The translations under genes were made by a program, and so were the position numbers. From an uncultured Candidatus Saccharibacteria bacterium (GTDB taxonomy: Bacteria; Patescibacteriota; Minisyncoccia; Phycocordibacterales; SBAW01), in contig CAYIHD010000004.1 of NCBI GenBank assembly GCA_964363205.1, forward strand, positions 1 through 43,811: DNA of 43,811 bases, written 5' to 3'. The notes below the pieces were generated by a model, which searched no databases, was not told the origin of the DNA, and saw nothing but the letters and a program-made list of their open reading frames with translations. Shown here piece after piece: positions 8,396 to 20,483 of this stretch; the first letter of the stretch is position 1, and each line of letters starts with the position of its first letter.

Positions 8396-8428
8396 GAAAA
8401 GAAAAAGGCGCCCTTTTTAAGGGGCGCC
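8396..8428 (-). terminator. Intrinsic terminator after the patatin-like gene
   Basis: Stem GGCGCCC (8407..8413) pairs with GGGCGCC (8422..8428). On the minus strand it is followed by TTTTTCTTTT. Confidence 0.75.
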
Positions 8429-8438
8429 GTTGCTTGTT

Positions 8439-9410
8439 TCAGCGGGTTTCTTCCTTAATAAGCCGGGTCATCCAGGCTTCGGCATCTTTGGCCGCCTTTT
8501 GGAGCTTTTGGGCATCCGTTTCGATTGCCGCAATAGTGTCATTAGCCCAAATGATGCCCCAGCGGCCTTGCCAATTGCGGAGAAAGTCGACTCCTTCCCT
8601 GAAACGCTCTTCCCGGGTGGCAAAGTCCTGTCTCAGCCTGTCGCACTCGTCGTTGGTCGCCCACCTTGTGAGCAGCTGTTCAACGACATGGCTGCGGTCG
8701 TCTTCGGCCCGGTTGGCCATGACCAAAATATCGGTCGGATTGAGCTCGCGCACGATGAGCTCAATGTCGCAGGGCATGGCGCCGACGCCATCCTCGTACT
8801 CGATGTCGTCGATGGAGACTTTGCCGTTGGAGACGCCGGGCAGAGCGATACCCGCTCGAAAAGCTTCGATAGGATCGGCAAGCTTTTTGGCGTCGAGCAG
8901 CATGCCTTCGCCGTCGTGGCACCGCACCACTACCACCTGGCAACCTGTCCTCGATTTGAGAAAGGCTTCAAGATCCGCGGCCTTGTTGCCCTCGACGCCG
9001 CGGAACACTTTGCACAGGTATTCGATATCCATGAGATGGCGGTCGCCGAAGCTTTTGATGCCGAGCTGCGAGAGCAGAGTTTTGGCGCCGTCGAGGAAAT
9101 GCACCGGGATAAACTTTCCCGACAGGCACTCCTCCCAGTAGATGGTGACGCCGACCTCCGGATTGTCGCCGAGGAAGTAGAGTACTCCCGGGCCTCCGGT
9201 TGAAACGGCCACAGCATGGTCGAACGAGTCCTTATAGCCGTTCTTGTGGAGCGCTGTCAGGTAGCCGCCGCTGTAGACGCCGCGGAACACGCCCGACAGC
9301 ACTACGAGCACAGGCCGGATTTGTTCGTGCCCGACAGGATTCTTACTCTGCAGGTAATTGCGTTTAATCTGCAGGTGCTTGATGACCGAACCTCTGCGTT
9401 CGAGGCGCAT
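8439..9410 (-). CDS. Patatin-like phospholipase family protein (variant motifs)
   Basis: 323 aa. The oxyanion-hole-like LSGVFRGVYSGG matches GGxRG. The nucleophile elbow is AVSTGG (GxSxG with Ala in place of the first Gly). The catalytic Asp block is EDGVGAMP (DG[AG]). The spacing and order fit a patatin Ser-Asp dyad. Confidence 0.6.
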   Translation of the reverse strand: MRLERRGSVIKHLQIKRNYLQSKNPVGHEQIRPVLVVLSGVFRGVYSGGYLTALHKNGYKDSFDHAVAVSTGGPGVLYFLGDNPEVGVTIYWEECLSGKFIPVHFLDGAKTLLSQLGIKSFGDRHLMDIEYLCKVFRGVEGNKAADLEAFLKSRTGCQVVVVRCHDGEGMLLDAKKLADPIEAFRAGIALPGVSNGKVSIDDIEYEDGVGAMPCDIELIVRELNPTDILVMANRAEDDRSHVVEQLLTRWATNDECDRLRQDFATREERFREGVDFLRNWQGRWGIIWANDTIAAIETDAQKLQKAAKDAEAWMTRLIKEETR

Positions 9411-9450
9411 GGACTCCCCCTATGTTTGCTGTACAGATATCTAAAATAAT

Positions 9451-9478
9451 ATTGTACAAGAAATATAAATAATTGCAA
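9451..9478 (-). promoter_or_regulatory. Candidate sigma70-type promoter dedicated to the patatin-like gene
   Basis: The minus strand reads TTGCAA (9478..9473), a 16-nt AT-rich spacer, then TACAAT (9456..9451). It lies between an upstream terminator and the SD GGGGGAG before the ATG at 9410. Confidence 0.6.
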
Positions 9479-9490
9479 GTTGGTGTGCGG

Positions 9491-9525
9491 GTAAAGAAAA
9501 AGGGCGCCTCTTGGAAGAGGCGCCC
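9491..9525 (-). terminator. Intrinsic terminator after the 567-aa membrane protein gene
   Basis: Stem GGGCGCCTCTT (9502..9512) pairs with AAGAGGCGCCC (9515..9525). On the minus strand it is followed by TTTTTCTTTAC. Confidence 0.85.
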
Positions 9526-9573
9526 GGCTGTTTGCTGTTGAACGAAAGAACTATCTGCGGTAACCTCGCACTT

Positions 9574-11277
9574 TCAGGGCTTCTCGGTCCACAGCGGACC
9601 GAGTTCCTTGCGCAGCTGCTCCGGCCAGTCTTTCGGGTTGTCGCTGTTGACCCACACCGATTTGTTTTTTCGCGCGTCGGTGATGACAATATCCGGACTG
9701 CCGGTAATGAATCCTTTCGGATCCTTGTTGTCGTACTTCTTTTTGTCGATTGTGACGACCGCTGTCAGCCACATGCGTCGTGTTTTGACGGAGCCCTCGG
9801 AGTCCGGAATGTCCTTGATGTAAGGTCGGTGCTCGTTCGGCAGATTGGTCGACCAATCGTAGTTCCGTCTTGACGACCGTACCCATCCCGGCACCGCGGT
9901 GACGCCCGTAAGCGACTCCCGCTCGCCGAAAAATTGGAATACGTAGGACGGCCCGATGCTGTCCGCAGGATGCAGAAACTCGGCCACATGACCCTGGTGT
10001 GCAGAGTCGTATGGCTCGAGCGCCACATACTGGAAGAGCTTCGAGGCCACTACCTTGCCCTCGTCGTTCCGGATATGGAAGAAGAGAGTAAAAGGCTGTT
10101 CGTTCTGGTCGTCGGGCATGTCCGCGATGCGGATGTCGCCCTCTCTTCGCAACCAAGTCGGCGCCAAGAATCCGTTTCTAAAGCGCAGGCTTGCCGCCAT
10201 ATAGCGGGTCACTTCGAAGGGTACTAAGTTTTGACCCACGAGGTACGGATGTGAGGCGATTTGATCGGGACCGATCCAAGTGCCGCAACCCCAGAAGACC
10301 CTTTTGAGAGTCTCGAGGCGCTCACCCAACCAGGACCGCTCAGGCGTCTCATCGATGACCATGACGCCGCCGAACTCCGGCCGGGGGAACGCCCAGCCCG
10401 CCCGGCGGATGATAGGCACCACTTGCACCATCTTCCCCGCATCGTTCTTGAGGTACATGGTAGTGCGGGTGACTTCGTGCGAAAAGGCGTTCCAGAACCA
10501 GAAACGCCTCTGCACGCAGGTGTAGATGTTGCGGGAGAACTTAAGCGTCTCGCCCGTTGCAAAGCGGGCGTTTCTGCCGCGACCCAGTTCGAACGAGGTG
10601 ATGTCGGCGTGTATCCTGACCACCTCCTCGACCGGGTCCCAGTACTGCAGCAACCACGTCGTGGGTTCGATGCCCATCGTCCAGTAGTATTCGCTGCCCT
10701 CGCGCACGAGATGAGCCTTTGTCGGCGTTTCGGTATCACGCATCTGCCGGCGGACGAAAGTTTGGATTCCGTCCAGCGACCAGATGCGCTCATGGTCGGT
10801 CAAAGGGTCGACCTTCGGCTCGACTGTATTCAGCGTTTGAAAGCGCCAGTACTGCGAGAAGAAGGTATGAAGCGGCTCTGCGTAACCGGCTCCGAACAGC
10901 AGGAGCACCAGCCCGAGCACCGCTCCGGCCGGCCGCAAGTAGCGCACCAGCGTCTTCGACGACGGGAACAGCCACCCGACAAGGGCGCCTACCCCGAACC
11001 AGCCGCCCACTGTCAGAGCGAGGGCCAGTACGATAGCTCCGGCATAGATGCGCGGAACGAAGAAGACATATGGCTCCCACAGGTAGCGGAAGATGTAGAT
11101 GCAGACGATAGCAGTCGGTATGAGTATTGCGACGGCAAGCCGCAGACCCCAATGCCACTCCCGCCAAGATTTGCTCCGCAGAAATTCCACAAAGTCGTCC
11201 CAGAGGCTTTTTAGAAAGACCTCGAAGGACGGCTTGTGCAATTCCCAGTTGGTCATTTCGATTGGAACACGATTCAC
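9574..11277 (-). CDS. Polytopic membrane protein with a large soluble domain; function unknown
   Basis: 567 aa. About 4 N-terminal TM helices (LRLAVAILIPTAIVCIYIF; IYAGAIVLALALTVGGWFGVGALVGWLF; AVLGLVLLLFGAGY) are followed by a Trp/Arg-rich domain of about 420 aa. The GTG start forms a GTGA overlap with the upstream stop and is preceded by GGGAGA. Confidence 0.8.
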   Translation of the reverse strand: MNRVPIEMTNWELHKPSFEVFLKSLWDDFVEFLRSKSWREWHWGLRLAVAILIPTAIVCIYIFRYLWEPYVFFVPRIYAGAIVLALALTVGGWFGVGALVGWLFPSSKTLVRYLRPAGAVLGLVLLLFGAGYAEPLHTFFSQYWRFQTLNTVEPKVDPLTDHERIWSLDGIQTFVRRQMRDTETPTKAHLVREGSEYYWTMGIEPTTWLLQYWDPVEEVVRIHADITSFELGRGRNARFATGETLKFSRNIYTCVQRRFWFWNAFSHEVTRTTMYLKNDAGKMVQVVPIIRRAGWAFPRPEFGGVMVIDETPERSWLGERLETLKRVFWGCGTWIGPDQIASHPYLVGQNLVPFEVTRYMAASLRFRNGFLAPTWLRREGDIRIADMPDDQNEQPFTLFFHIRNDEGKVVASKLFQYVALEPYDSAHQGHVAEFLHPADSIGPSYVFQFFGERESLTGVTAVPGWVRSSRRNYDWSTNLPNEHRPYIKDIPDSEGSVKTRRMWLTAVVTIDKKKYDNKDPKGFITGSPDIVITDARKNKSVWVNSDNPKDWPEQLRKELGPLWTEKP

Positions 11278-11885
11278 GGCTTTCTCCCTTCGGCGAAGCG
11301 TTGCAGCACCGCTTTTGCGCTCATGTCCTCAGCAAGCTTTTGAGGCGGCTGAGGGACTTCGGGCGCGGACGGCTGAGGCTGCACGGCAGGTTTTGTTGCA
11401 GGGATGAAGTTTCGGAACTTTGAAGGAAGGTCAAGCGCCCATGAGAACAGGTTTTTGACGGTTTCCTCCCGGTGGTCGATGGCATCGAAGATTTTGTCCT
11501 GTCTCTTGATGACGTGGACAAAAATCTTGTCCCCGAGCCACAGGCCCGGAATCAGGAACCATCCCTCGAGAAAGAGGGTGGGAACTTCAGCAACAATCTC
11601 CCAACTCGAGTAGTTGCCAAAGGAGACTGCCAACACGCTTTGAATGGCCGACAGAAGCAAGGCACGGTTGTGCTGTTGCCGGAGACTGCGTCCATAGAAG
11701 AAGCCGATTTCGCGGTCAGCGTGCAGGCGTTGCTCGGGGGGAACTCCCCGGTTGTGATACCAACGGTACACCGGAACACCGATGTAGCGGTCCATAATCT
11801 CAAGAATCGCTCCCGCGACCATAAACGCCACCAGTAGCGGCGCCAGATAATTGATGAACCACGCACCGAAAGCTGTTATTAGCAT
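11274..11885 (-). CDS. Small membrane protein (about 3 TM) with a Pro-rich cytoplasmic tail; function unknown
   Basis: 203 aa. TM segments include APLLVAFMVAGAILEIM, LLLSAIQSVLAVSF and FLEGWFLIPGLWLG. The tail has PAVQPQPSAPEVPQPPQ. The SD AAGGAG lies 7 nt before the ATG. There is a 4-nt overlap with the next gene. Confidence 0.8.
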   Translation of the reverse strand: MLITAFGAWFINYLAPLLVAFMVAGAILEIMDRYIGVPVYRWYHNRGVPPEQRLHADREIGFFYGRSLRQQHNRALLLSAIQSVLAVSFGNYSSWEIVAEVPTLFLEGWFLIPGLWLGDKIFVHVIKRQDKIFDAIDHREETVKNLFSWALDLPSKFRNFIPATKPAVQPQPSAPEVPQPPQKLAEDMSAKAVLQRFAEGRKP

Positions 11886-11970
11886 TGCATTTCTCCTTGT
11901 GAGAGTTAGATATTTTGAAGAGCGGTAAGCCTTTTCAGGCTCGCAGGTCTGTATTAACTATACCATATAA

Positions 11971-12002
11971 TAAAAAAACATGGAAGGGGGTCCCTTCCAT
12001 GT
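11971..12002 (-). terminator. Intrinsic terminator after the 429-aa gene
   Basis: An 11-bp stem: ACATGGAAGGG (11978..11988) pairs with CCCTTCCATGT (11992..12002). On the minus strand it is followed by TTTTTTTATT, then a TATAGT -10-like box (11962..11957). Confidence 0.85.
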
Positions 12003-12018
12003 TTAGAGTTTAGGCGGT

Positions 12019-13308
12019 TTAAGGTTCGGCGCTCATTTCGGGCTGATAGTTTTCCGAAACGAACGTAGAAACCCACTGTTTTTTCGCGGGAGTCCATCCT
12101 TCAAAGAGTTTGAAGAACCGTTCCTTGTCGTGTTTGTAGAGCAGCAGCGGGTCCGGAGGGCTCTCCTGCAACCGCAGGAGCAGCATCCAGAGGACATCTT
12201 GGTACCGCTGGCTGAGCAATTTTTGGTTAGGCCGCAGGAGCAGCAAACCGAGCCCTTCGGAAACCTCCGGGATCGCCTTGCCTGACACCTTGCTGGTGAG
12301 CGAACGCTTAAAGCGCTGGAGCTCGGAGAGCAGTTCGATATCGTTCTTGCGGCCGACGAGGATCCTGCTGCGTTTGCCCTTGCTCATTTCGGCAAAGTCG
12401 CAGTCTGGCTCGAAAGAACAGACGGCCTCCATGATGAGGTAGTTCTCGAGTTGTTCGAGCCACGCCAGCAGGTCCGTATTATTTTTGTATGCCTTCAGGT
12501 CGAGTTCGACGAGATCTTCGTCGATAAGATACTCGATGATCCGACGGCGCTCATTCAGCGCGAACACCCGGTAACGCTCCCCTTTCTCCGGTTGGATTTT
12601 AGGGAGCCAGGCTTCGTCCTCGACGATGAGGATGCTGTCCGCGCCTGCGCGCAGCACGAAGACCATCTTGCCCTCGAACCGCGCCCAAAAGTCGCCGATG
12701 AGCGAGAACTTCCAGTCGGGAAACTCGCATCGGCGCCGGCGCAGGTCGCCGTACTCGGCGGCACTGACGATGATCCTGGTACGTAGCGACTTGTTGAACC
12801 ATTTCAGTCCGGGCGACTCAAAGTCCGCCGCGAGCTGTTTTTGTTCGGCGACATCTTCCACAAGTTTTCCCGCCGACGAGTGCACCAGGACTTCGTCCAT
12901 AAAGACAAAGTCCTTCGGCGTGTCGTTGGTCAGGGTGTCGTAGATGAACTCTTGCACCACGCACGAGGAAGTGGTGGTGTCGATAATCGGACGCTTAAAG
13001 CGGTCAAAATATTGCCGCTCCAAGCGCCGCTTGAACGAGAACATGGGGATATGAATCGGCTTGCCCTCCTGTTCGGGAGTGGCGATGATGCCGAACCGGG
13101 TTGCCCCGGCTCCCATATAGTGCGGGTCGCCGCGTTCAGTGGCGATATCCGGGCTCCAACCCACGCCGTCGATGCCGAACGACTTGTGGTCAGTCGGTTC
13201 GATGCCGAGGCTTCCGAGAGCCTCGTTGAACATCGCGACGCCGCGTGGCGTGTTGATGGTAACAAGGCCCCGGCCGAACAGGCCGGACTTAATGAGCATA
13301 GGGTCCAT
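12019..13308 (-). CDS. Hypothetical protein (orphan); last gene of the AAA+ operon
   Basis: 429 aa with SD CAGGAG before the ATG at 13308. It is the long uninterrupted ORF in this stretch, and the opposite-strand ORFs over it (12451..12786, 12626..12943, 12841..13311) are much shorter. I recognise no catalytic motif. Confidence 0.8.
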   Translation of the reverse strand: MDPMLIKSGLFGRGLVTINTPRGVAMFNEALGSLGIEPTDHKSFGIDGVGWSPDIATERGDPHYMGAGATRFGIIATPEQEGKPIHIPMFSFKRRLERQYFDRFKRPIIDTTTSSCVVQEFIYDTLTNDTPKDFVFMDEVLVHSSAGKLVEDVAEQKQLAADFESPGLKWFNKSLRTRIIVSAAEYGDLRRRRCEFPDWKFSLIGDFWARFEGKMVFVLRAGADSILIVEDEAWLPKIQPEKGERYRVFALNERRRIIEYLIDEDLVELDLKAYKNNTDLLAWLEQLENYLIMEAVCSFEPDCDFAEMSKGKRSRILVGRKNDIELLSELQRFKRSLTSKVSGKAIPEVSEGLGLLLLRPNQKLLSQRYQDVLWMLLLRLQESPPDPLLLYKHDKERFFKLFEGWTPAKKQWVSTFVSENYQPEMSAEP

Positions 13309-13331
13309 TAGGAACTCCTGTTGGATTGGGC

Positions 13332-13353
13332 GGGGGGGGGGGGGGGGGGGGGG
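13332..13353. repeat. G22 homopolymer (C22 on the coding strand) in the AAA+/429-aa intergenic spacer
   Basis: I counted 22 consecutive G at 13332..13353 directly from the sequence. They are followed by TTTCCG and then C7 (13360..13366), which can pair with part of the G run. Confidence 0.95.
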
Positions 13354-13389
13354 TTTCCGCCCCCCCGGCCGGTTTTTTTGCCGGGCGGA

Positions 13390-15411
13390 TTATGCCGCCT
13401 CGGCTTCTTCAGGTGTCTTTACGCGTCCGGTGCTAATAAGAAGCTGTTTTGCTTCCCTCCTGGCATCGAACTGCTTGACCAAGCCGTCGCGGAGTTCCGT
13501 AACCTCGCGTTGTCGTGCGTTCTCCGGGATGGAGAGCAAGACGTTGAGGTAACGAACAGTCTCTTGCAACCGGCACGACTTCATGGAGAGCCCCTGAAGG
13601 GCATCCTTTTGTCGAGCCAACAGCATTTTGACCTTTTCATCGAACGGCTTGTCGGTGAAAGCTTCGCGCTTCTCCAGCCACTGCGGGTCGACGTCGAAGT
13701 CAGTCCGCCGCGCGTTAATCGCCACCTGGACGTTTCGAACATCCCGTGATGAGAACGATGTGGGGAATGCTTGCTTAACCTTGGCATAGACCTGCGCATA
13801 GAACATGTGCTCGTCCTCGCGGAAGGTCTTGCGGACCTCCTCGAAGATTTTACGCAAGGTTCCTTCGCGCGGCTCGATAGGCTCTTTGGCGTACAACGCC
13901 GAGAGACTCACCATCTTGCCCTGCGTCGTCATGTAGACATGCTTCGGAGGGTCTTGCATATCGTCGAAGGTAGAATCTTGCTTGGCGATGTCTTGCCGCC
14001 AAATCCAGTCCTGGTCGAGAAAGTCCTCGACCGTGACCGCGCCTTCGATGTCGTACTTGTCTTGGATACGGCTCATCACCGGCTGGTAGATCTTCTCCGG
14101 CAGGTTTGTCAGCAAACGCAGGAGCCAATTGAGCTCCCGTGACGCTGTTGCGCCTTCGGAGAATGTCAGAAACACACTGATGATTCCCTCCGTGGACTCT
14201 GCCGAGCGGTTGCCCTCGATCGATTTGAGGACTCCCTCGACATCGTCCATGACGCCGTAGATGATACGACTCGTGTCGGAAAAGCGTCGGGTCCACTCGA
14301 GCATCTGCTTGGAGGATTTGCCCTGGAATTCAGAGGCCATATCTTTGGGGAGCTCCCAATAGAGCGGCTTGAAGCCCAGGTTATCGCCAACGTGAGACAG
14401 CTCTGTGAACTCGGCGCCGGCCATCATGGTCTTGCCGGTGCCTGCCATCCCCTTGCCCATCGTGATGAGTGGCACTTTGCCGAACGCTGCGATGTAGGGA
14501 TTTTTCTTGACCTTGAGATCGAAGAGTGCAAGCCGGTGTATCGAGCGGAGCGCGTTATGCTTTGCCGCCCGGTTGCCCACAATCTCCTCGAACTTGACCG
14601 GATTAACCGTGACGCTTGCTTGAACATCCTGCACCACGGTCTCGAAGCCGTTGACCATAAAGTCCTCGGTCTCGAGTTTGTATATGGAACCCGTAAAGGG
14701 TTCCGTATACCGCAGTGCAGGCAGTTTGAGTTTGATCTCATCGATGATCCACTGCAGGTACAGCAGGGTCATCTTTACCGCCGCCGGCCCGCTTTGCACC
14801 AACCTTGTCTGGTCCGTTCGCTTCAGCTCGAGGAGCTTGGCGAGGTAAAAGACAAAGCATTGATACGCTTCGGGCGGTTGGAGGATCGAGATTTCCGGCA
14901 CGGCGCCCAACTCCATGGGCACCGCGCTTACTTCGTCGGACTTATAGCGCGCAAGGCGCCATATCCCGTAGGACGCCGCGACAAACAGTTGAACTGCCGC
15001 GGCGCTCTGATTTTTCTGCTGGCGTTCGGTCTGACGGTCGGGTGTAAGCCCGCCGTTTTTGATCTTAAGGAGTTCGTCCAGACCTACCTCTTTCTGGTAG
15101 ATCTCGGAGCGGTACATCCCTATGGTCATGGCCCTGCGCAGCACGTGGAGGATATGCAGACCATCCTCGTTGAAGAGCGTCGAGTCTTCGCCGACCGTCA
15201 TCACAGTGTTCCCCAGTATGACTGACTGGACAGACTGCGCGAAGCCGGTGTCGGTCGTTCGTTCTTCGTCCGGGCTTATTTCCTTTTTAACCGCGGCAAC
15301 GAATCGCCGCCCCGGAGTCCATTTGGTGGTCATCATGAGGGATCGCGCCGCCGACTCCTGGAAGCGGAGAAGATCCTTTTCCGGAATGGGCAGCGCGTTA
15401 GCGGACTTCAT
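13390..15411 (-). CDS. Classical-clade AAA+ ATPase with large N- and C-terminal extensions
   Basis: Walker A is GKGMAGTGKT. The post-Walker-A segment ASEFQGKSSKQMLEWTRRF resembles classic AAA y.GesE..vr.lF. Walker B is RIIYGVMDDVE, sensor-1 is LLTNLPE, and an Arg sits in PVMSRIQDKYDI. I chose the ATG at 15411 (MKSANALP) because AAGGAG lies 7 nt upstream. The track start at 15480 would overlap the upstream gene by 83 nt. Confidence 0.85.
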   Translation of the reverse strand: MKSANALPIPEKDLLRFQESAARSLMMTTKWTPGRRFVAAVKKEISPDEERTTDTGFAQSVQSVILGNTVMTVGEDSTLFNEDGLHILHVLRRAMTIGMYRSEIYQKEVGLDELLKIKNGGLTPDRQTERQQKNQSAAAVQLFVAASYGIWRLARYKSDEVSAVPMELGAVPEISILQPPEAYQCFVFYLAKLLELKRTDQTRLVQSGPAAVKMTLLYLQWIIDEIKLKLPALRYTEPFTGSIYKLETEDFMVNGFETVVQDVQASVTVNPVKFEEIVGNRAAKHNALRSIHRLALFDLKVKKNPYIAAFGKVPLITMGKGMAGTGKTMMAGAEFTELSHVGDNLGFKPLYWELPKDMASEFQGKSSKQMLEWTRRFSDTSRIIYGVMDDVEGVLKSIEGNRSAESTEGIISVFLTFSEGATASRELNWLLRLLTNLPEKIYQPVMSRIQDKYDIEGAVTVEDFLDQDWIWRQDIAKQDSTFDDMQDPPKHVYMTTQGKMVSLSALYAKEPIEPREGTLRKIFEEVRKTFREDEHMFYAQVYAKVKQAFPTSFSSRDVRNVQVAINARRTDFDVDPQWLEKREAFTDKPFDEKVKMLLARQKDALQGLSMKSCRLQETVRYLNVLLSIPENARQREVTELRDGLVKQFDARREAKQLLISTGRVKTPEEAEAA

Positions 15412-16561
15412 TGACCTTCTCCTTGTGGTCGTAGCTGAACTTGATGCGCCGGACGTAGTGCGGTATATGCCGCTCTTCATCCGGTGTTATTTCCTGATAG
15501 AGACGATGCGGCATCAGGATGTAACGGGTGATGTCGATGTCGTTGTCGAGCAGGGGGACAAAGAAGACCTCTTGCACGACTGACTTGAAGAGATACTTCT
15601 TGCGGGTGACCTGCTCTTTGGAGTATGTCATCTCCTCGGAGAACGTCATCTCGAAGTCATCCTGCTCCGCCGCCCGGTCGAACAACTCTTTAAAGGCCGC
15701 TTCAGCCTCCGAGAGCCGCTCTTGCGGGCGGGCGTTGATGAGGAAGGGCGAACGAATCGGCCCTATCCTCACCCGTTTGAGGATTTTTGGATGAATCGGA
15801 TCAAGCCGGTCATCGATCGACTTAGCCAAGAGATGTAATTTGTCGGGCACATGAGACCCTTCATCCTTGATTACGTTGAGGAATTCGGCGAGGTTGTCAC
15901 CGCACTTCTCGAACGCGTCTTCCGTTTCGTCTTGCGTCAGGAACATGAGGTGCACGAAGAGGCAGTTGTGAGCGACGCTGTACGTCCCCCAACTGAAGAG
16001 ATACCCCCGCACCCCCTCTTCCTTAACGGTCCAAGGGATCAGTTGTCCCGGCGTATACGGCAGAAGCAGCTTGTCTTGATCAAGCAGCTCCAGATATGTG
16101 CGTCTGGCCAATTCGCGCAGCATGACATTTGGCTCGCGCTGCTTCTCGATCATGTGGTCGAGAATAAGCTTTTTGAGCTGCTCTTCGCTAGAGCGCATCT
16201 CAGCCAGCGAAGCATCGCGATGCATAAGGTCGACGGCAAGGCCGTCGATATTGGTAAAGCTCGGAAAGCCGCTTTCTTCGAGGTCGATATTGAGCCCGTA
16301 GGCCGAGTCATCGCCGTTTGGGAAAGCAAACTTGATTTCCAGCAAAGATGCCGAAAAGAGGAGCTTCTGCACCATGTCGCCAATCACTTCGGCTTCGTAG
16401 ATGTTCTTATCCAGCTGGGGTGTACCATGCATAGCCAGGCATTTGAGTGCCATGGGCAACGCCCGGCGTATCAGCTTGAAGTAATGTGCAGACGCCTCAG
16501 TATTAGGAAGGGGCGCCGGCGGTTGTGTCTCAGGGTCGAGGTCTTTCATGCTCGTGTCCAT
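15398..16561 (-). CDS. Hypothetical protein (orphan), translationally coupled to the AAA+ ATPase
   Basis: 387 aa with SD AAGGAG 6 nt before the ATG at 16561. Its last 14 nt overlap the AAA+ start and contain the AAA+ gene's SD. I found no recognisable motif; the NGDDSAYGLNIDLEE stretch was inspected and is not a convincing NTase motif. Confidence 0.8.
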   Translation of the reverse strand: MDTSMKDLDPETQPPAPLPNTEASAHYFKLIRRALPMALKCLAMHGTPQLDKNIYEAEVIGDMVQKLLFSASLLEIKFAFPNGDDSAYGLNIDLEESGFPSFTNIDGLAVDLMHRDASLAEMRSSEEQLKKLILDHMIEKQREPNVMLRELARRTYLELLDQDKLLLPYTPGQLIPWTVKEEGVRGYLFSWGTYSVAHNCLFVHLMFLTQDETEDAFEKCGDNLAEFLNVIKDEGSHVPDKLHLLAKSIDDRLDPIHPKILKRVRIGPIRSPFLINARPQERLSEAEAAFKELFDRAAEQDDFEMTFSEEMTYSKEQVTRKKYLFKSVVQEVFFVPLLDNDIDITRYILMPHRLYQEITPDEERHIPHYVRRIKFSYDHKEKVNEVR

Positions 16562-16617
16562 GTCGGACTCCTTTTTTGGTTTCGGTTTTTCGTCGAAGCG
16601 TTAATACATCTAACGAA

Positions 16618-16656
16618 TGAGAAAAGAAAAAAGGGAGAAGCGCGAACGCCTCTCCC
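16618..16656 (-). terminator. Intrinsic terminator or attenuator between the coiled-coil gene and the rest of the operon
   Basis: On the minus strand, GGGAGAGGCG-TTCG-CGCTTCTCCC forms a 10-bp stem with one G.U pair, followed by TTTTTTCTTTTCTC. Confidence 0.8.
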
Positions 16657-16672
16657 TTATATTGCCGCCGTG

Positions 16673-17965
16673 TCACGCGGCGGGAGCGGTTGCGCCGTCT
16701 TGGCCGAGGAACCGTTTGGCGAAGTCCTTGCGGGTCGCCTCGTCGATTCCGGCGGCGTGGAGGATCTGCGCTTCTTGCTCCTCGAGACGCTCCAGGGCAT
16801 AGCTGAGGCGCTCGGGTTGGTCCTTCTGCACTTCTTGGCGGGCGTTGGTCGACGCGGCGCCGGCCTCGAGCATAGTGTCGAGGAGGCGGCGGTCGACTTC
16901 GTTGCCCGTCTTGAGCGCCGTGGCGACCAGCTCGATCTTCTTGAGCTGCTCCATGGTCTCGATGTAGTGCGCACGCTTGTTGGCGATGTTGCGGTTCTTG
17001 ACCTGCTGAGCAGCGGCAAGAGCCTTGGCATCCTTGGTCATTGCGATAGCAGTGCGCTCGTAGCCTGTATATTCTTGGGCGTTGATCTGCTCCTCCTTGG
17101 AGACAAGCAGGAGCGCACTCCGGTCCCCGGACGCCGTCTGCAGCTCAGCTTCGATGTCCGAGAGATTCTGCTGGAGCTGGCTGTAGTTGGTGTCTTTCTC
17201 GTCGGCATGGCTGAGCACGTCCTTCGCGGCGTCGCGTTGCGACTCAAGGTCCGTGATCTTCGTGTCGAGCTTGCCGATGAGTTCCCGCGTCTTTTTAGAG
17301 ACGTCAAAGGAGTGCGTTTTATCGGTCTTGATCTTCTCGGTCCGAGTGATCATGATCCGGTGGCCTTCCACGAGCGCGGCATAAGAGCGCTCGCCGTACG
17401 CCAGCAGCCGACCAAGGCTTTCTTCCATGTTCGCCTTGCGATATTCAGCAGTGATCTCGCGGGCGACCCCGGCGTTGATCTCGATGAGTGCCGCCTCAGC
17501 CTGTTCAAGTTCCTCCTTTGCGCTTGCGACAGGGTCGCGGGCGCCGAAGAAGGTCGAACGAGTCGGAGCGACTTCCATTTCAGCACGGGCATCGACCACC
17601 CTTTTGGCGGCCGCGGCCTTGCGGGCCGTCTGCGCCGGAGTTTCCTTGAAGAGGCTCTCCAGTTGCGAGTCGAGCCCTTTGGCGTATTCGGCGAAGGCGA
17701 GAACGACATCGGACATGTCCGTTTTGTCGCTATCCATCTTCGCTCGGACGTCCTTGAAGCGGGTGTTGAGGAGGCCGAGCGCCTCGGCACGCTTCTTCGG
17801 GTCTCGGATCTTTTCGGCCGTTTTACGGTCCTGGTCGATCTGAGCCATGTAGCCGGCGAGGATATCGTCGGTTTTTGCGCTCAAATTTTCTTCGACCTTG
17901 GCGGCCGCGGTTTCCATGAGGATACCGAGGTCGACAGTCGAAGCGGCTGGTGCGGCTTGCGCCAT
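16673..17965 (-). CDS. All-alpha coiled-coil protein; function unknown
   Basis: 430 aa, rich in A/E/K/Q/L/R with almost no Pro or Gly in the central region and heptad-like stretches throughout. SD GAAAGGA precedes the ATG at 17965. The huge + ORF 15851..18118 is its antisense shadow. Confidence 0.85.
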   Translation of the reverse strand: MAQAAPAASTVDLGILMETAAAKVEENLSAKTDDILAGYMAQIDQDRKTAEKIRDPKKRAEALGLLNTRFKDVRAKMDSDKTDMSDVVLAFAEYAKGLDSQLESLFKETPAQTARKAAAAKRVVDARAEMEVAPTRSTFFGARDPVASAKEELEQAEAALIEINAGVAREITAEYRKANMEESLGRLLAYGERSYAALVEGHRIMITRTEKIKTDKTHSFDVSKKTRELIGKLDTKITDLESQRDAAKDVLSHADEKDTNYSQLQQNLSDIEAELQTASGDRSALLLVSKEEQINAQEYTGYERTAIAMTKDAKALAAAQQVKNRNIANKRAHYIETMEQLKKIELVATALKTGNEVDRRLLDTMLEAGAASTNARQEVQKDQPERLSYALERLEEQEAQILHAAGIDEATRKDFAKRFLGQDGATAPAA

Positions 17966-18104
17966 AATCAGGTCCTTTCCCTGAGTTGTATTTGGACAGG
18001 CAATATACCCGTCCGGTTGAACGTTAACTGTTTTGTTGACTGCTATTCGGTTGTCAACGAACCGGTAGGAATGATGGTTTTGCCCCCACTCCGTTCCACC
18101 TGTG

Positions 18105-18133
18105 TATTTACACTATAGTGTAAATTTTGTCAA
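18105..18133 (-). promoter_or_regulatory. Candidate promoter TTGACA-17-TAAATA with an embedded 20-bp perfect palindrome (operator-like)
   Basis: The minus strand reads TTGACA (18133..18128), a 17-nt spacer, then TAAATA (18110..18105). The palindrome ATTTACACTATAGTGTAAAT (18106..18125) fills the spacer and most of the -10. Confidence 0.6.
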
Positions 18134-18268
18134 GTACTGTGGGGGCTTTAAAAATGGCTCAAATAAAGCTTTTTTTTGACATGCATTTACTTCTCAAAAA
18201 CAGAAGGTATATACTAAAAGGCAGTTAGTCGCCCCGCCGGTTGCGGGGCAAACAGAAGGAGAGTCTCC

Positions 18269-18706
18269 ATGAATCCCGGGTTACTGCTCATTGTCGGCGC
18301 AGCCGCCGTCAAAATCGTGTCGGTGGGGTGGCTGGTAAGCATCGCCACCTCCCCGGTCGCCATCGCCTCGCGCAAGCGGTTCCTCGAGGCCAACAAAGAG
18401 GGTCTCGAGAACATCGTCAAGCTCGGCATCGGCCCGAACGCAGAGGACCTTAAAGCGCTCCGCAAGGACTTCAAACTGCTACAGGCGCGGGTCGACACCG
18501 GCTGGGGCGAGACCCATCTTTTCTTCGCCGCCCTGCGTGTCTCAAACTGGAAATTTTGGGAGCACACAGCCGGCGCCATCAAGGGCGCGTGCGAGCTCTC
18601 CACCAATATGGCTGGAAGCGGGCTCGACAGTCTTAGCCGCGGCTTTGATTGGATTACTACGCCCGGCAAGCCGACCGGCAACCCCGACGGCAACATCCGG
18701 ACCTGA
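18269..18706 (+). CDS. Small single-pass membrane protein, divergent from the AAA+ operon
   Basis: 145 aa with an N-terminal hydrophobic helix (GLLLIVGAAAVKIVSVGWLVSIA). SD AAGGAGA lies 6 nt before the ATG. It ends at a terminator. Confidence 0.7.
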   Translation: MNPGLLLIVGAAAVKIVSVGWLVSIATSPVAIASRKRFLEANKEGLENIVKLGIGPNAEDLKALRKDFKLLQARVDTGWGETHLFFAALRVSNWKFWEHTAGAIKGACELSTNMAGSGLDSLSRGFDWITTPGKPTGNPDGNIRT

Positions 18707-18721
18707 CACAAGAAGCTACAG

Positions 18722-18745
18722 CTCCGCCCTCTGGCGGAGTTTTTT
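18722..18745. terminator. Stem-loop shared by the convergent 145-aa gene and alaS
   Basis: CTCCGCC (18722..18728), loop CTCT, GGCGGAG (18733..18739), then TTTTTT on the + strand. It overlaps the alaS stop codon. Confidence 0.75.
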
Positions 18746-20483
18746 ATTGCAGCACAGCTTTAATGCGCCTTATACCCTGCGCGACCGCCTCTTCTTTTAC
18801 AATTTTAAAAGTACCGAGCTCGCCGGTGCGCTGCACGTGCGGGCCGCCGCAGAATTCTGTCGAATATGCCGAGTCGAGCGGCCCGACAGAATAAACAGAA
18901 ACACGCTCAGGATACTTGGCCCCAAATTCGTGCTCCGCGCCCAGCTTTTCCGCCTCCGCAAGCGGCATTTCGGTGCGTACCACCGGCAAATCTTCTTTTA
19001 TTTTTTCATTCACCAGTTGTTCCAGTTGTTCCAGTTGTTCTGTTGTTAGTTTTTTATCGTGGCTAAAGTCGATGCGCAGGCGCTCTTGCGTAATATTGCT
19101 CCCCCGCTGGTGTACCTGCGGTCCGAGCACTTGTTGGAGCGCTTTAAGCAGGAGGTGGTGCGCGGTGTGGAGCCGTGTCGTTGCCTCGGATGTGTCGGCC
19201 AAACCACCCTTAAACTTTTGTTCCGAGCCGGCGCGACTTAGGTTTTGGTGTTCTTTGAGCAGCTCTTTAAACCCCTCAAAATCTATTTGTTTAATACCCT
19301 TCAATCCCGCCTCCTCGGCGATAAGTTCTATGGGAAATCCGTAGGTGGTAAAAAGTTGGAACGCGTCCTGTGCCGAAAGCGACCCGCCGGCGGTAAACCG
19401 CGCGAGCTCCTTCATCCCGCGCTCGAGCGTCTTGCGGAAACGTGCTTCTTCGGCCCCGATTTCTGCGACGCCTGTCAGGTCGCCGAGTTTTCCGTGCGGG
19501 ACGCCGAGCGCATCGGCATAGCGCACCGCGCGGCGGATAAGCCGCCTCACAACATAGCCGCGCTCCACATTGCCGGGGAGTACGCCGTCTGCTATCAAAT
19601 ACCCCGCCGCGCGCAGGTGGTCAGCAATGATACGGAACGGGTGTTTTTCTTGCGCGTATTTTTTGCCGCTCAAATCCTCAAGTTTTTTTATAAGCGGCGT
19701 AAAGGCTTCGGTGGCAAACACGTCCGGATTATCTATTGATGCCGCCGCGATACGCTCGAGCCCGCCGCCAAAGTCGACGTTTTGCTTCGGCAAAAGACCG
19801 AAGGAACCGTCCGGATTTTTGAGGTACTGCATAAACACCGAGTTGCCGATTTCGAGGAAGCGCCCGCAGTCGCAGTTGGGGTGGCACTGCGCGCCGAACT
19901 CAGGCTTGTGCTCGATATGCTCAAACTCATAAAAAACTTCCGAGTCCGGGCCGCCCGGTTCGCCGGCAGGCATTTTGTCCGGCGTGCCCGCGCGGCTCCA
20001 CCAGTTTTTGCTTGAGCCGTAAAATTTAATATGATCCTCCGGCATCCCCAGAGCTTTCCAAATCTCCGCCGACTCGGTGTCCTTCGGCAAGTTCAGCGCG
20101 GCGTCGCCCTCAAAACAAGTGACCCACAGACGCTCCTTTGGTATCCCGATTTCTTTGGTAAAAAATTCGAACGCAAAGCCGAGTTGTTCCTTTTTAAAAT
20201 AATCGCCGAGCGACCAGTTGCCGAGCATTTCAAAAAAGGTGGTGTGCCGGTTGTCCCCCACCTCTTCTATATCCATTGAGCGAAAACATTTCTGCGAGTT
20301 TGCCAAGCGATTGCCGGCAGGATGCGGCGCGCCAAGGAGATACGGCACCAGCGGCTGCATCCCCGAGCCGGTAAAAAGTGTTGTCGGGTCGTTCTCGGGC
20401 ACCAACGGGGCCGACGGGATTATGGTGTGCCCCTTGCTCTCAAAAAATCGCAGATATTTTTCCCGCACTTCGTTAGGGGTCAT
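18744..20483 (-). CDS. alaS: Alanine--tRNA ligase, short form (579 aa)
   Basis: Starts MTPNEVREKYLRFFESKGHTIIPSAPLVPENDPTTLFTGSGMQ, with an editing-domain HxxxH (HTAHHLLLKAL) and GGPHV. It ends right after the editing core, so the C-Ala/DHHA1 domain is absent. Confidence 0.93.
   Translation of the reverse strand: MTPNEVREKYLRFFESKGHTIIPSAPLVPENDPTTLFTGSGMQPLVPYLLGAPHPAGNRLANSQKCFRSMDIEEVGDNRHTTFFEMLGNWSLGDYFKKEQLGFAFEFFTKEIGIPKERLWVTCFEGDAALNLPKDTESAEIWKALGMPEDHIKFYGSSKNWWSRAGTPDKMPAGEPGGPDSEVFYEFEHIEHKPEFGAQCHPNCDCGRFLEIGNSVFMQYLKNPDGSFGLLPKQNVDFGGGLERIAAASIDNPDVFATEAFTPLIKKLEDLSGKKYAQEKHPFRIIADHLRAAGYLIADGVLPGNVERGYVVRRLIRRAVRYADALGVPHGKLGDLTGVAEIGAEEARFRKTLERGMKELARFTAGGSLSAQDAFQLFTTYGFPIELIAEEAGLKGIKQIDFEGFKELLKEHQNLSRAGSEQKFKGGLADTSEATTRLHTAHHLLLKALQQVLGPQVHQRGSNITQERLRIDFSHDKKLTTEQLEQLEQLVNEKIKEDLPVVRTEMPLAEAEKLGAEHEFGAKYPERVSVYSVGPLDSAYSTEFCGGPHVQRTGELGTFKIVKEEAVAQGIRRIKAVLQ
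19012..19038. repeat. 9-bp tandem repeat x3 (CCAGTTGTT) inside alaS
   Basis: Three exact copies at 19012..19020, 19021..19029 and 19030..19038, encoding EQLEQLEQL on the minus strand. Confidence 0.9.

Follow-up and report, generated by a model that had tools for sequence, protein, structure and literature searches.

A conserved six-gene cassette pairing a classical-clade AAA+ ATPase with a DUF6638 protein and two membrane proteins in Patescibacteria, Flavobacteriaceae and other bacteria

Introduction

In ESCRT-III/Vps4 systems (archaeal CdvABC; Asgard and eukaryotic Snf7-Vps4), a classical-clade AAA+ ATPase adjoins a helical, presumably oligomerising protein that carries a conserved C-terminal peptide, and the pair associates with membranes. 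PspA/Snf7 proteins with AAA+ ATPases have also been documented in bacteria, in operons that bring together a helical membrane-associated protein, small transmembrane (TM) proteins and an AAA+ ATPase, and that have been proposed to serve ATP-dependent membrane remodelling or assembly (PMC11237479). The AAA+ partners in these operons comprise PspF-type sigma-54 activators, two-domain AAA+ proteins, Vps4-like ATPases with TPR-6TM partners, and AAA+ domains fused to coiled-coil and beta-propeller domains (PMC11237479).

We analysed a 43,811-nucleotide stretch of DNA (the window) from an uncultured Candidatus Saccharibacteria bacterium. A preliminary description of the window had set out a block of eight open reading frames beside alaS that fitted no named system, and had offered three hypotheses, namely a membrane-remodelling machine with the logic of ESCRT-III/PspA and Vps4, an abortive-infection defence with a lipase effector, and a host-lipid acquisition apparatus. 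Six of the eight genes, here called A to F, share with the ESCRT-III/Vps4 systems the AAA+ ATPase (C, whose core is related to Vps4) next to a helical protein (A) with a conserved C-terminal peptide, and the membrane association. They differ in that A has no detectable ESCRT-III/PspA homology and is about twice as long, the N- and C-terminal domains of C are unrelated, with no MIT domain detected, and B, D, E and F, the other four conserved partners, have no ESCRT counterpart. The combination of helical protein, TM proteins and AAA+ ATPase likewise recalls Psp envelope-stress neighbourhoods, but the described PspA/Snf7 systems lack DUF6638 and the B, E and F families (PMC11237479), and profile searches of the cassette detected no PspA, PspB, PspC, Toastrack, band-7 or CesT domains.

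Results

Layout of the locus and limits of the cassette

All eight reading frames, four terminators and a 14-nucleotide overlap between B and C lay where the preliminary description had placed them. The features are as follows:

18720-18741, plus strand: terminator-like hairpin and T-run 3' of H
18269-18706, plus strand: gene H, 145 aa, one N-terminal TM segment, divergent from A
16673-17965, minus strand: gene A, 430 aa, soluble, predicted all-helical; first cassette gene
16621-16658, minus strand: terminator-like hairpin and T-run in the A-B gap, 12-bp stem with 7 G-C pairs, tail TTTTCTTTTC
15398-16561, minus strand: gene B, 387 aa, soluble; small self-contained family
13390-15411, minus strand: gene C, 673 aa from an internal ATG; classical-clade AAA+ ATPase
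12019-13308, minus strand: gene D, 429 aa, DUF6638 protein; cassette signature gene
11966-12004, minus strand: terminator-like hairpin and T-run in the D-E gap, 13-bp stem
11274-11885, minus strand: gene E, 203 aa membrane protein, about three TM segments
9574-11277, minus strand: gene F, 567 aa (560 aa from Met8), membrane protein
9492-9525, minus strand: terminator-like hairpin and T-run 3' of F, 10-bp stem with 8 G-C pairs; cassette end
8439-9410, minus strand: gene G, 323 aa, patatin-like phospholipase
8428-8407, minus strand: terminator-like hairpin and T-run 3' of G

Genes A, B, C (673 aa; the longest reading frame is 696 aa), D, E, G and H match the public gene calls residue for residue. 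The hairpins themselves were placed at 16658-16631 in the A-B gap, 12004-11976 in the D-E gap and 9525-9502 after F. The 4-nucleotide E/F overlap of the preliminary description holds for the GTG start of F; from the NCBI start at Met8 the two genes are separated by a 17-nucleotide gap. Hydrophobicity profiles revealed no hydrophobic segment in A to D and marked E and F as membrane proteins. The eight genes do not form one unit. The unit is the six genes A-B-C-D-E-F, one uncharacterised operon-like cassette on the minus strand (9574-17965). It lies between alaS, which Pfam confirmed as adjoining the block, and infA with ribosomal protein genes, an arrangement shared by its closest relative. The block had been called an island; since its G+C content (0.53-0.60) is the same as in the rest of the window, it is not one in composition. 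Pfam and family profile searches of the block found no integrase, transposase, nuclease, methylase or cyclase, and no system was assigned from Pfam, NCBIfam, PADLOC, PHROG or the PDB, as the preliminary description had anticipated, including its judgement that the locus is not CBASS.

The hairpin between D and E is the border between a soluble module (A-D) and a membrane module (E-F), and the cassette breaks at this border in other genomes too: Trueperaceae carry A-D with no E or F nearby, loci L027 and L119 consist of D-E-F only (two Flavobacteriaceae loci are of this form, with no A-C nearby), and in L154 about 7 kb is inserted between D and E. The A-B gap is long, with a median of 130 nucleotides, nearly always above 60 and at most 20 in only 3 of 79 loci; a crude scan found a hairpin and T-run 3' of A in 15 of the 79. 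B/C and E/F, for their part, overlap or abut in many loci.

The flanking genes G and H

The earlier recognition of G as patatin-like holds (PF01734, 33.6 bits; cut-off 27.7), and G is the next gene downstream of F, in the same orientation. This placement, together with the finding that D has its nearest named relatives in Patescibacteria, would suit the idea that all eight genes, G included, form a lipid-acquisition or remodelling apparatus of a lipid-auxotrophic episymbiont. However, G is bracketed by its own terminators (9525-9502 and 8428-8407), is the one member of its 90%-identity cluster, and was not seen in any of about 166 related loci. The closest relatives are L087 and L088, with 79-93% identity in A-F; there an unrelated 169-aa gene fills the slot between two conserved flanking genes. 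The cassette, moreover, is carried mostly by free-living Flavobacteriaceae. G is thus a strain-specific gene in a variable slot beside the cassette and not a member of it, and the comparative data effectively refute the lipid-apparatus reading; the absence of G from related loci likewise removes the basis for a lipase effector in a defence system. H has a homologue in the same divergent position only in L087 and L088 (91% identity) and in L089 (phmmer E 5e-6), and no other locus carries one. As a neighbour particular to this subclade, H stands outside the widely conserved cassette.

Recurrence of the cassette across genomes

If the adjacency of these genes were fortuitous, they should not co-occur in other genomes. 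A set of 86 genome loci was searched with BLAST and iterated HMMs. Once metagenome loci were added, 114 loci proved to hold all six genes in the order A-F, out of about 120 with flanks long enough to judge; some cassette genes were missing from only about seven such loci. Co-occurrence is therefore strong for A-F, while for G it is nil and for H it is confined to its own subclade. Independent public gene calls gave the same gene order and sizes. Among the 86 genome loci, D was present in all, C in 83, E (between D and F, by iterated HMM) in 81, B in 80, F in 79 (30-39% identity to the window protein) and A, by iterated HMM in the matching position upstream of B, in 79. The hosts include Patescibacteria, many Flavobacteriaceae (cultured ones among them), Desulfobacterota and others.

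This distribution bears on whether the cassette could be an anti-phage or abortive-infection system, in which E and F would detect an attaching phage or a disturbed envelope and the AAA+ module would carry out the response. The spread over distant phyla is patchy, and the loci of a Buchananbacteria MAG and a 'Gammaproteobacteria' MAG (L007 and L008) are 67-81% identical, which points to horizontal transfer or mis-binning. A patchy, transfer-like distribution fits accessory or defence functions too, and many new defence systems are multi-gene cassettes of ATPases and unknown proteins. The slot beside F is variable and holds the patatin-like gene in the window, a ParE toxin gene lies near L006, and prophage genes lie downstream of L005. 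Yet throughout the Flavobacteriaceae, in dozens of species and many genera, the cassette occupies one syntenic chromosomal site among housekeeping-type neighbours (an ABC-type ATPase, an arginase-family protein, a metallo-beta-lactamase-fold protein and others), which argues for vertical inheritance and not for defence-island turnover. The position between alaS and infA in the window is kept in the closest relative, and the cassette is retained in small Patescibacteria genomes. Nor did any of the eight proteins match PADLOC (PADLOC-DB dated 2023), a check that agrees with the earlier view that no named defence system is present; there was no PHROG match of note, and the six conserved proteins have no recognisable effector domain (nuclease, protease, lipase, TIR or pore-former). 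The stable chromosomal position weakens the defence hypothesis of the preliminary description, and we regard a defence role as disfavoured and unlikely.

The AAA+ ATPase and its coupled partner B

The assignment of C to the classical clade was borne out by Pfam (PF00004, E 1e-6) and by PDB searches with the family profile, which matched NVL, Cdc48, VAT, Pch2 and Vps4, only across the ATPase core. C consists of a family-specific N-terminal domain (about residues 1-260), the ATPase core (about 261-460) and a C-terminal domain (about 460-673), and profiles of the two outer domains had no PDB match. The Walker A motif, the [F/Y]-Q-G pore loop, the sensor-1 T-N and the S-R arginine fingers are each present in 83 of 83 relatives. 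The Walker B motif reads D-D-x-E, with D389 and E392 in all 83 and position 390 D in 81 and E in 2; Asp thus stands in place of the catalytic Glu of classical AAA+ proteins, and ATPase kinetics could be unusual as a result. Judged by its sequence, C is a classical-clade AAA+ protein with catalytic and substrate-engaging motifs conserved. The best sequence relatives of its core are the Cdc48/p97/VAT/NVL unfoldases (E 1e-9 to 1e-8), with which it shares Walker A, the aromatic-x-Gly pore loop, sensor 1 and the arginines of the second region of homology. In contrast to Cdc48, with its tandem D1-D2, C has a single ATPase domain, and its N-terminal profile gave no sign of a Cdc48-type N domain; it also departs from these unfoldases in its Walker B (D-D-x-E versus D-E) and its family-specific C-terminal domain of about 210 aa.

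The end of B overlaps the start of C by 14 nucleotides. B had been described as an orphan, and it has no match in Pfam, NCBIfam, PADLOC, PHROG or the PDB; it is nonetheless a family of 229 representatives at 50% identity among 1.84 billion, all of about 350-400 aa and none with a domain fusion. A paralogous relationship of B to D was considered and rejected on comparison of the two.

Protein A and the ESCRT-III comparison

A is among the best conserved genes of the cassette within lineages (82% identity for L006 versus L020; 57% for L001 versus L007). In 71 of 79 relatives it ends in a conserved RYGID..F..Y-type motif followed by an acidic tail. It has neither a signal peptide nor a hydrophobic segment, and against Pfam, NCBIfam and the PDB it returned nothing beyond generic coiled-coil noise.

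Could A be a highly divergent ESCRT-III/PspA-fold polymer and C its Vps4-like disassemblase? The gene logic, a helical protein and a classical AAA+ ATPase with membrane partners, is like that of CdvABC and Snf7-Vps4, Vps4 is among the PDB matches of the C profile (E 3.5e-6), the C-terminal peptide of A could act as a MIM motif, and PspA/Snf7 proteins accompany AAA+ ATPases in other bacteria (PMC11237479). Against this, four A proteins from different lineages had no PspA_IM30 or Snf7 match even at E 0.1, a search of the whole PDB sequence set with the A profile, up to E=10, returned generic coiled coils with no PspA, Vipp1 or CHMP among them, and hhalign of that profile with E. coli PspA gave a probability of 0.2%. 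A also has about double the length of an ESCRT-III/PspA protein. C matches NVL and Cdc48 more closely (E 1e-9) than Vps4, and a search with its N-domain profile found no MIT domain. A true bacterial ESCRT-III/PspA system would therefore be a very improbable reading of these sequences, and the first hypothesis of the preliminary description survives only as a functional analogy.

The DUF6638 protein D

D, also described as an orphan, turned out to be a member of Pfam DUF6638 (PF20343, E 1.6e-26, 93.6 bits against a cut-off of 27). It has 37 relatives in 90%-identity clusters, and a relative occurs in 194 GTDB species genomes. We found no mention of DUF6638 in the literature. The check by AlphaFold and Foldseek that had been suggested gave confident models for D and F with no convincing PDB counterpart. 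For D (pLDDT 89.8, pTM 0.86) the best Foldseek matches were at E=1 in the PDB and E=0.14 in BFVD.

The membrane pair E and F

Like A and B, neither E nor F was assigned a Pfam, NCBIfam or PHROG family. E has a long low-complexity C-terminal tail ending in a short conserved basic motif, and no TM residue in its alignment is both charged and conserved. A and E each end in a short conserved C-terminal motif after a flexible region; these are candidate docking motifs.

F had been credited with four TM helices. The family alignment, hydropathy and AlphaFold helices (43-62, 64-103 and 108-148; model pLDDT 90, pTM 0.86) make three N-terminal segments most likely. In the model these are followed by an alpha/beta domain of about 430 aa, built of repeated helix-plus-sheet modules. 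The N-terminus and the TM2-TM3 loop are rich in K/R, which suggests an N-in, C-out topology. Fold-level matches of the soluble region were limited to two, both weak and local (TM-scores 0.13-0.23): the uncharacterised EUBREC_2869 (5coz; probability 0.89, TM-score 0.15-0.21) and the PepSY repeats of the YpeB C-terminal domain (5boi; probability 0.44). F resembles these proteins in its repeated modules of a helix and an antiparallel sheet, but at sequence level it matches no Pfam family, PepSY included, and differs from YpeB and EUBREC_2869 in having its own 3-TM anchor and invariant motifs. The positive-inside rule and the weak PepSY-like matches indicate that the domain is probably extracytoplasmic.

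A large, highly conserved and probably outward-facing domain on three TM helices raises the thought of an envelope-spanning export or assembly device, loosely analogous to EccA of type VII secretion or to Bcs1, in which C would unfold A or another substrate and feed it through or to an E/F complex in building or maintaining an extracytoplasmic structure. The translational coupling of E and F in many loci, the intact pore loop of C, as a translocating motor requires, and the signal-like C-terminal motif and acidic tail of A would all suit such a device. However, E and F together offer only about six TM helices, in which no polar or charged residue is conserved to hint at a channel, A carries neither a signal peptide nor a hydrophobic stretch, Trueperaceae retain A-D with no E/F nearby, and the Pfam-annotated neighbours in five contexts include no secretin, signal peptidase or known secretion component. 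We consider an export device rather improbable.

Discussion

Our working model, to which we give a probability of roughly 45%, is that the A-F cassette may encode one previously undescribed membrane-associated AAA+ machine. Only the ATPase core has recognisable homologues, so that what follows on the substrate, on the parts played by B and D and on physiology is inferred. C would form a ring and spend ATP in threading, unfolding or disassembling a protein partner. The best candidate for this partner or substrate is A, the helical protein that the machine would remodel. A is favoured because it is helical, strongly conserved within lineages and equipped with a conserved C-terminal peptide motif, and because, as the first gene, it forms a transcription or attenuation unit of its own. 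B, translationally coupled to C, and D could serve as cofactors or adaptors.

E and F would anchor this activity at the cytoplasmic membrane, E contributing a flexible cytoplasmic tail and F a large outward-facing alpha/beta repeat domain. The Trueperaceae loci that lack E/F and the loci with D-E-F only suggest that membrane tethering is not obligatory, or that the modules may be encoded apart. Jointly, E and F would link the machine with the envelope of the cell, and its candidate roles are envelope maintenance or remodelling, or the assembly of a membrane-linked structure.

A six-gene cassette conserved in order across phyla

All eight open reading frames (ORFs) of the block were recovered in the ORF list at the coordinates given in the preliminary description. 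For A, B, C (in its 673-aa form), D, E, G and H, exact-sequence look-up returned public gene calls with identical products.

Genes and terminator-like elements of the block (genes from the ORF list; hairpins followed by T-runs from a consensus scan)
16673-17965, minus strand: A, helical protein, 430 aa
15398-16561, minus strand: B, soluble protein, 387 aa
13390-15411, minus strand: C, AAA+ ATPase, 673 aa from an ATG overlapping the end of B by 14 nt (longest ORF 696 aa)
12019-13308, minus strand: D, DUF6638 protein, 429 aa
11274-11885, minus strand: E, membrane protein, 203 aa
9574-11277, minus strand: F, membrane protein, 567 aa
8439-9410, minus strand: G, patatin-like protein, 323 aa
18269-18706, plus strand: H, divergent single-TM protein, 145 aa
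16658-16631, minus strand: strong hairpin and T-run
12004-11976, minus strand: strong hairpin and T-run
9525-9502, minus strand: strong hairpin and T-run
8428-8407, minus strand: strong hairpin and T-run
18720-18741, plus strand: hairpin and T-run after H

The start of F differed between public calls (560 aa, from Met8, in the NCBI copy; 567 aa in ENA), so the 4-nt overlap of E and F hinges on the choice of start. Each of the four terminators proposed earlier was matched by one of the minus-strand hairpins. Across loci, the spacer between A and B was long (median 130 nt), B/C and E/F often overlapped or abutted, and a terminator-like hairpin lay 3' of A in the window and in several other loci. 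Since the G+C content of the block (0.53-0.60) equals that of the remaining window, we rejected a compositional island.

We used D as the handle for gathering relatives and their neighborhoods. Around five D homologues, public calls showed proteins of ~430-450, 350-395, 650-680 (AAA), 405-435 (DUF6638), 170-230 and 525-625 aa. A scan of one genome per GTDB species with a pattern derived from a 7-sequence D alignment found a D relative encoded in 194 genomes, and 80 loci were fetched. The hosts included Patescibacteria (Buchanan-, Sungii-, Moranii- and Saccharibacteria), a Trueperaceae chromosome, Desulfuromonadales and Desulfobacterales MAGs, a 'Gammaproteobacteria' MAG and ~65 Flavobacteriaceae; cultured members are numerous among the last, namely Lacinutrix, Winogradskyella, Seonamhaeicola, Wocania, Flavivirga, Mangrovimonas and, with a complete genome, Pontimicrobium sp. 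IMCC45349. When every ORF of 86 genome loci was searched by BLAST and iterated HMMs, D was recovered at every locus, C at 83, E at 81, B at 80, and A and F at 79 each. The genes always followed one another as A-B-C-D-E-F on a single strand, and neither G nor H was found at any of these loci. A further 80 metagenome loci gave the same picture, and the complete set was present in 114 loci when genomes and metagenomes were combined. Whether the genes co-occur in other genomes had been put forward as the check on the block as a whole; it was borne out for A-F, which recur together and in the same order, and the proposed eight-gene unit shrinks to six. The six families are inherited as a unit. That the same order should be kept by accident in tiny Patescibacteria genomes, free-living marine Flavobacteriaceae, Desulfobacterota and Trueperaceae is very unlikely, and it is close to certain that the cassette is one system.

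Exceptions were counted where the flanking sequence sufficed; all other incomplete loci were cut by contig ends. Two Trueperaceae loci (L001 and L011) carried A-D only, with neither E nor F within 10 kb, and L099 carried B-C-D followed by ~10 kb without E or F. Conversely, two Flavobacteriaceae loci (L027 and L119) carried D-E-F without A-C. F was missing from L058, where A-E were present, and in L154 ~7 kb was inserted between D and E. Since A-D can occur without E and F, and D-E-F without A-C, D stays with either module. The cassette is thus composed of two separable modules, A-D and E-F, which in the window meet at the terminator at 12004-11976, and the breaks in other genomes fall at the same boundary. 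At the Desulfobacterales locus L014, no A-C were found upstream of D and the locus appears rearranged; a pair of genes 5' of D (141-aa and 157-aa ORFs) is directly duplicated there (L014:4214-7433).

Flanking genes and chromosomal site

The closest relatives of the window, L087 and L088 (79-93% identity in A-F and H), delimited the unit. Their layout was alaS, H, A-B-C-D-E-F, a 169-aa gene, orthologues of the 319-aa and 417-aa genes of the window, and infA. G was absent from both, and the unrelated 169-aa gene filled its slot (L087:13734-14494). The interval between F and the 319-aa ORF (7381-8340) is therefore variable, and in the window it holds G between two strong terminators (8396-9573). 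Given this replacement, G is a gene specific to the strain, set in a variable slot with its own terminators on either side. The 169-aa gene of L087 and L088 does not qualify as a seventh conserved gene, having no homologue in any other locus; its L087 copy had no Pfam match. H occupied the same divergent position only in L087, L088 and the more distant L089, and is a subclade-specific neighbor. With G replaced and H restricted to a subclade, we rejected the eight-gene unit; the real unit is the six-gene cassette at 9574-17965.

These comparisons also decide what weight the patatin-like gene can bear. As evidence for a patatin we took an HMM match above the gathering score together with a Ser-Asp dyad in G-x-S-x-G and D-G-[AG] motifs. 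G scored 33.6 bits against PF01734 (cut-off 27.7), placing it in the patatin-like phospholipase family; read by eye, its putative nucleophile motif is A-V-S-T-G, with Ala in place of the first Gly, and D-G-V occurs as well. The gene was absent from all related loci, so it can be counted neither as part of the unit nor as an effector of the cassette. An eight-gene apparatus for acquiring or remodelling lipids, with the patatin as one of its parts, is effectively refuted by the comparative data, and we give it a negligible chance.

Two further genes were found inside the cassette in Flavobacteriaceae. One, encoding a NUDIX hydrolase (~196 aa, PF00293, E 4e-14; L020:9405-9983), lay between C and D in 46 loci (cluster c7) and in no other lineage; either an accessory specific to this lineage or an insertion without relation to the cassette would explain it. 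The other, encoding a 23S-rRNA-intervening-sequence protein (PF05635, E 7.5e-29; L022:11272-11652), was present in 14 loci (cluster c20), in either the B-C or the D-E interval, and behaves like a mobile insertion. As lineage-specific insertions, both were rejected as a seventh cassette gene.

The cassette has alaS, confirmed as the next-door gene by Pfam, on one side and infA with ribosomal protein genes on the other, both in the window and in its closest relative. In the Flavobacteriaceae it occupies a single syntenic chromosomal site, with the same flanking gene clusters on both sides in most loci. By Pfam these flanking genes encode a metallo-beta-lactamase-fold protein and an arginase-family protein; others we take from their sequences to encode an ABC-F-type ATPase, a pirin-like protein, a MarR-type regulator and an acetyltransferase. 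Occupation of one site across many genera indicates vertical inheritance of the cassette within this family. In L007 (a Candidatus Buchananbacteria MAG) and L008 (the 'Gammaproteobacteria' MAG), however, 67-81% identity in all six proteins makes recent transfer between phyla or a mis-binned contig evident.

The stable site bears on whether the cassette is a defence system, as had been suggested for the block. Its patchy distribution across phyla would suit such a role, but defence islands typically show turnover, unlike the site seen here, and the cassette contains no recognisable effector domain. None of the eight proteins matched PADLOC (PADLOC-DB v2.0.0) at E<=0.1, a null result to be read with the 2023 date of that database in mind. 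Taking these points together, we regard a defence function as unlikely. CBASS in particular, defined by a CD-NTase cyclase adjoining an effector that is conserved with the system, had already been discounted on inspection, and we agree: no cyclase family and no PADLOC match was found, and the patatin that might have served as a CapV effector is missing from related loci.

A second variable slot lies beside the cassette, between alaS and an M13 peptidase gene. In the window (20555-21763) it holds a 402-aa ORF without a Pfam match, and in L087 (2153-2839) it instead holds a gene for a 228-aa protein with sigma-70 region 4. The alaS gene of the window (18744-20483) is short, encoding 579 aa with the tRNA-synt_2c and tRNA_SAD domains only, and the window has its nearest named relatives among the Patescibacteria (D homologue P0011, 'Candidatus Paceibacterota'); both are consistent with a reduced genome. 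An Rfam scan of the window matched tRNA-Ala only.

The AAA+ motor

C scored 29.6 bits against PF00004 (cut-off 21.2). Membership of the classical clade was judged by Walker A GxxGxGK[ST], Walker B hhhhDE, a sensor-1 Asn, the arginines of the second region of homology (SRH) and an aromatic-hydrophobic-Gly pore loop 1. Walker A (GxxGTGK[ST]), pore loop 1 ([F/Y]-Q-G), sensor 1 (T-N) and the SRH S-R were each present in all 83 relatives, and the second arginine, R452, in 82. By these motifs C is a classical-clade AAA+ ATPase. Its Walker B motif (C residues 390-392) is unusual throughout the family, reading D-D-x-E instead of the classical hhhhD-E: 81 of the 83 relatives carry Asp at the position of the classical catalytic Glu, and an invariant Glu follows two residues on. 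The window protein itself departs from its family at A323 (Pro in 82/83) and K452 (Arg in 82/83).

As a single sequence C had no match in the PDB. A 24-sequence family profile matched NVL, Cdc48, VAT, Pch2/TRIP13, Vps4, PEX6 and Rpt4 (best E 1e-9), exclusively in the ATPase core (profile positions ~261-450), and profiles of the N-terminal (~260 aa) and C-terminal (~210 aa) domains matched no PDB entry. C is apparently a competent AAA+ protein. In classical AAA+ proteins an intact pore loop is established as a sign of threading, and on this basis C would be a motor that engages and threads a substrate.

Soluble and membrane partners

Judged from their sequences, A-D are soluble and E and F are membrane proteins. 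A is helical and has no hydrophobic segment, and its only matches in Pfam, NCBIfam and the PDB were compositional coiled coils (SMC, keratin, tropomyosin). Within lineages its conservation equals or exceeds that of C: identity is 82% for a pair of Flavobacteriaceae, and 57% for one Trueperaceae and one Buchananbacteria genome. The window protein is only ~20% identical to any of the others. In 71 of 79 relatives the C-terminus carries an RYGID..F..Y-type motif followed by an acidic tail, which in Flavobacteriaceae ends in ...DDLLS.

B matched nothing in Pfam, NCBIfam, PADLOC, PHROG or the PDB. An exhaustive phmmer search of 1.84 billion representatives returned only 229 relatives, all of ~350-400 aa and free of fusions. 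An apparent B+C fusion (P0238) proved to be frameshifted read-through, an apparent D fusion (P0008) was merely an N-terminally extended D, and pairwise comparison showed that B and D are not paralogues. D had been described as an orphan. It is a full-length member of DUF6638 (PF20343; 93.6 bits, cut-off 27; E 1.6e-26; residues 14-424), and all 37 relatives collected carry this domain. Its AlphaFold model was confident (pLDDT 89.8, pTM 0.86), and the Foldseek matches went no lower than E=1 in the PDB and E=0.14 in BFVD. Literature searches by keyword found no mention of DUF6638.

E is poorly conserved, with ~3 TM segments, and its alignment contained no TM residue both charged and conserved. 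Its long low-complexity tail ends in a short basic motif, KSARERLKDKGLL in Flavobacteriaceae. F is well conserved: across phyla, its homologues are 30-39% identical to the window protein. An alignment of the family, together with the hydropathy profile, gave F three TM segments rather than the four counted earlier; a hydrophobic insertion of ~10 residues in TM2 makes the window protein look as if it had four. The AlphaFold model of F (pLDDT 90, pTM 0.86) shows helices at 43-62, 64-103 and 108-148, then repeated helix-plus-sheet modules. Foldseek gave weak local matches to the uncharacterised EUBREC_2869 (5coz; E 3.9e-4, probability 0.89, TM-score 0.15-0.21) and to the PepSY repeats of YpeB (5boi; probability 0.44), and TM-scores over the two were only 0.13-0.23. 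The soluble region had no PepSY or other Pfam match. Lys and Arg abound at the N-terminus and in the TM2-TM3 loop, so that by the positive-inside rule the large domain probably lies outside the cytoplasm.

Comparison with described systems

We searched the eight window proteins against Pfam, NCBIfam, PADLOC and PHROG, and homologues of A, B, C, E and F (from L020 and L013, with A also from L001) against Pfam and NCBIfam. Only AAA, DUF6638 and patatin were found. PDB profile searches with A, B, C, F and the terminal domains of C matched the ATPase core alone, and fold searches with D (PDB, BFVD) and F (PDB) returned nothing convincing.

The analogy drawn earlier with ESCRT-III or PspA found no homology to rest on. 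Four A proteins lacked Snf7 (PF03357) and PspA_IM30 (PF04012) matches at E<=0.1, the A profile retrieved no PspA, Vipp1 or CHMP from the PDB up to E=10, and hhalign against E. coli PspA, using a PspA sequence that may be inexact, gave a probability of 0.2%. On the side of C, Vps4 was matched in the ATPase core only and more weakly (E 3.5e-6) than NVL/Cdc48 (E 1e-9), the N-domain profile found no MIT-containing chain at E<=1, and the NCBIfam CdvC model scored 15 bits against a 650-bit cut-off. A Psp system was defined by PspA, PspB and PspC domains with a sigma-54-activator AAA+ protein bearing an HTH; PspA, PspB, PspC and Sigma54_activat were all absent from the eight proteins and from homologues in three other genomes. 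We therefore consider it very unlikely that the cassette is a true, highly divergent ESCRT-III/PspA-Vps4 system.

In logic the nearest analogues are ESCRT-III/Vps4 (CdvABC) and the bacterial PspA/Snf7-AAA+ neighborhoods surveyed in PMC11237479, the only pertinent work that keyword searches returned. DUF6638 and the B, E and F families are missing from both, and the cassette has none of the domains by which they are defined. The memberships that held were classical AAA+ for the core of C and DUF6638 for D; all others failed or were weak. The block was rightly called uncharacterised: as a system it matches nothing described and is in that sense new, though its engine is an ordinary kind of AAA+ protein.

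A possible mechanism

Our main reading, to which we assign a probability of roughly 0.45, is that A-F form a membrane-associated AAA+ machine that remodels a helical partner and is anchored through E and F. A could be made in excess over the downstream genes, given the long spacer ahead of them and the terminator at this point; placing the gene for a structural subunit ahead of those for its machinery is a common arrangement. Helped by B and D, C would then act on A, or on a different client brought in through A, by assembling, disassembling or unfolding it; the C-terminal peptides of A and of the flexible tail of E are candidate docking sites. E and F would anchor this activity to the membrane, and the external repeat domain of F would link it to the envelope. 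Taken by itself, this specific mechanism is less probable than the main reading. That the six proteins instead constitute an export or assembly device seems to us improbable.

The boldest form of the remodelling proposal is doubtful: ATP-driven assembly and disassembly of a scaffold of A at the inner membrane face, coupled through E and F to the envelope and made up almost entirely of folds without a solved relative (D, B, F). If true, it would represent an independently arisen functional analogue of ESCRT-III/Vps4 or NSF/SNARE, and a machine common to episymbiotic Patescibacteria and free-living marine Flavobacteriaceae.

The cassette is real, widely distributed and unexplored. Five of its six proteins lack a family with an annotated function, and D and F have confident structure models without a solved relative. 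Fixing the unit at six genes and removing the patatin lipase avoids misdirected functional hypotheses. Because the cassette is carried by cultured genera (Winogradskyella, Lacinutrix, Seonamhaeicola, Wocania, Flavivirga, Pontimicrobium, Mangrovimonas), its function is open to genetics without culturing a Patescibacteria episymbiont. The client of C, once found, could reveal a new bacterial way of remodelling proteins at the membrane.
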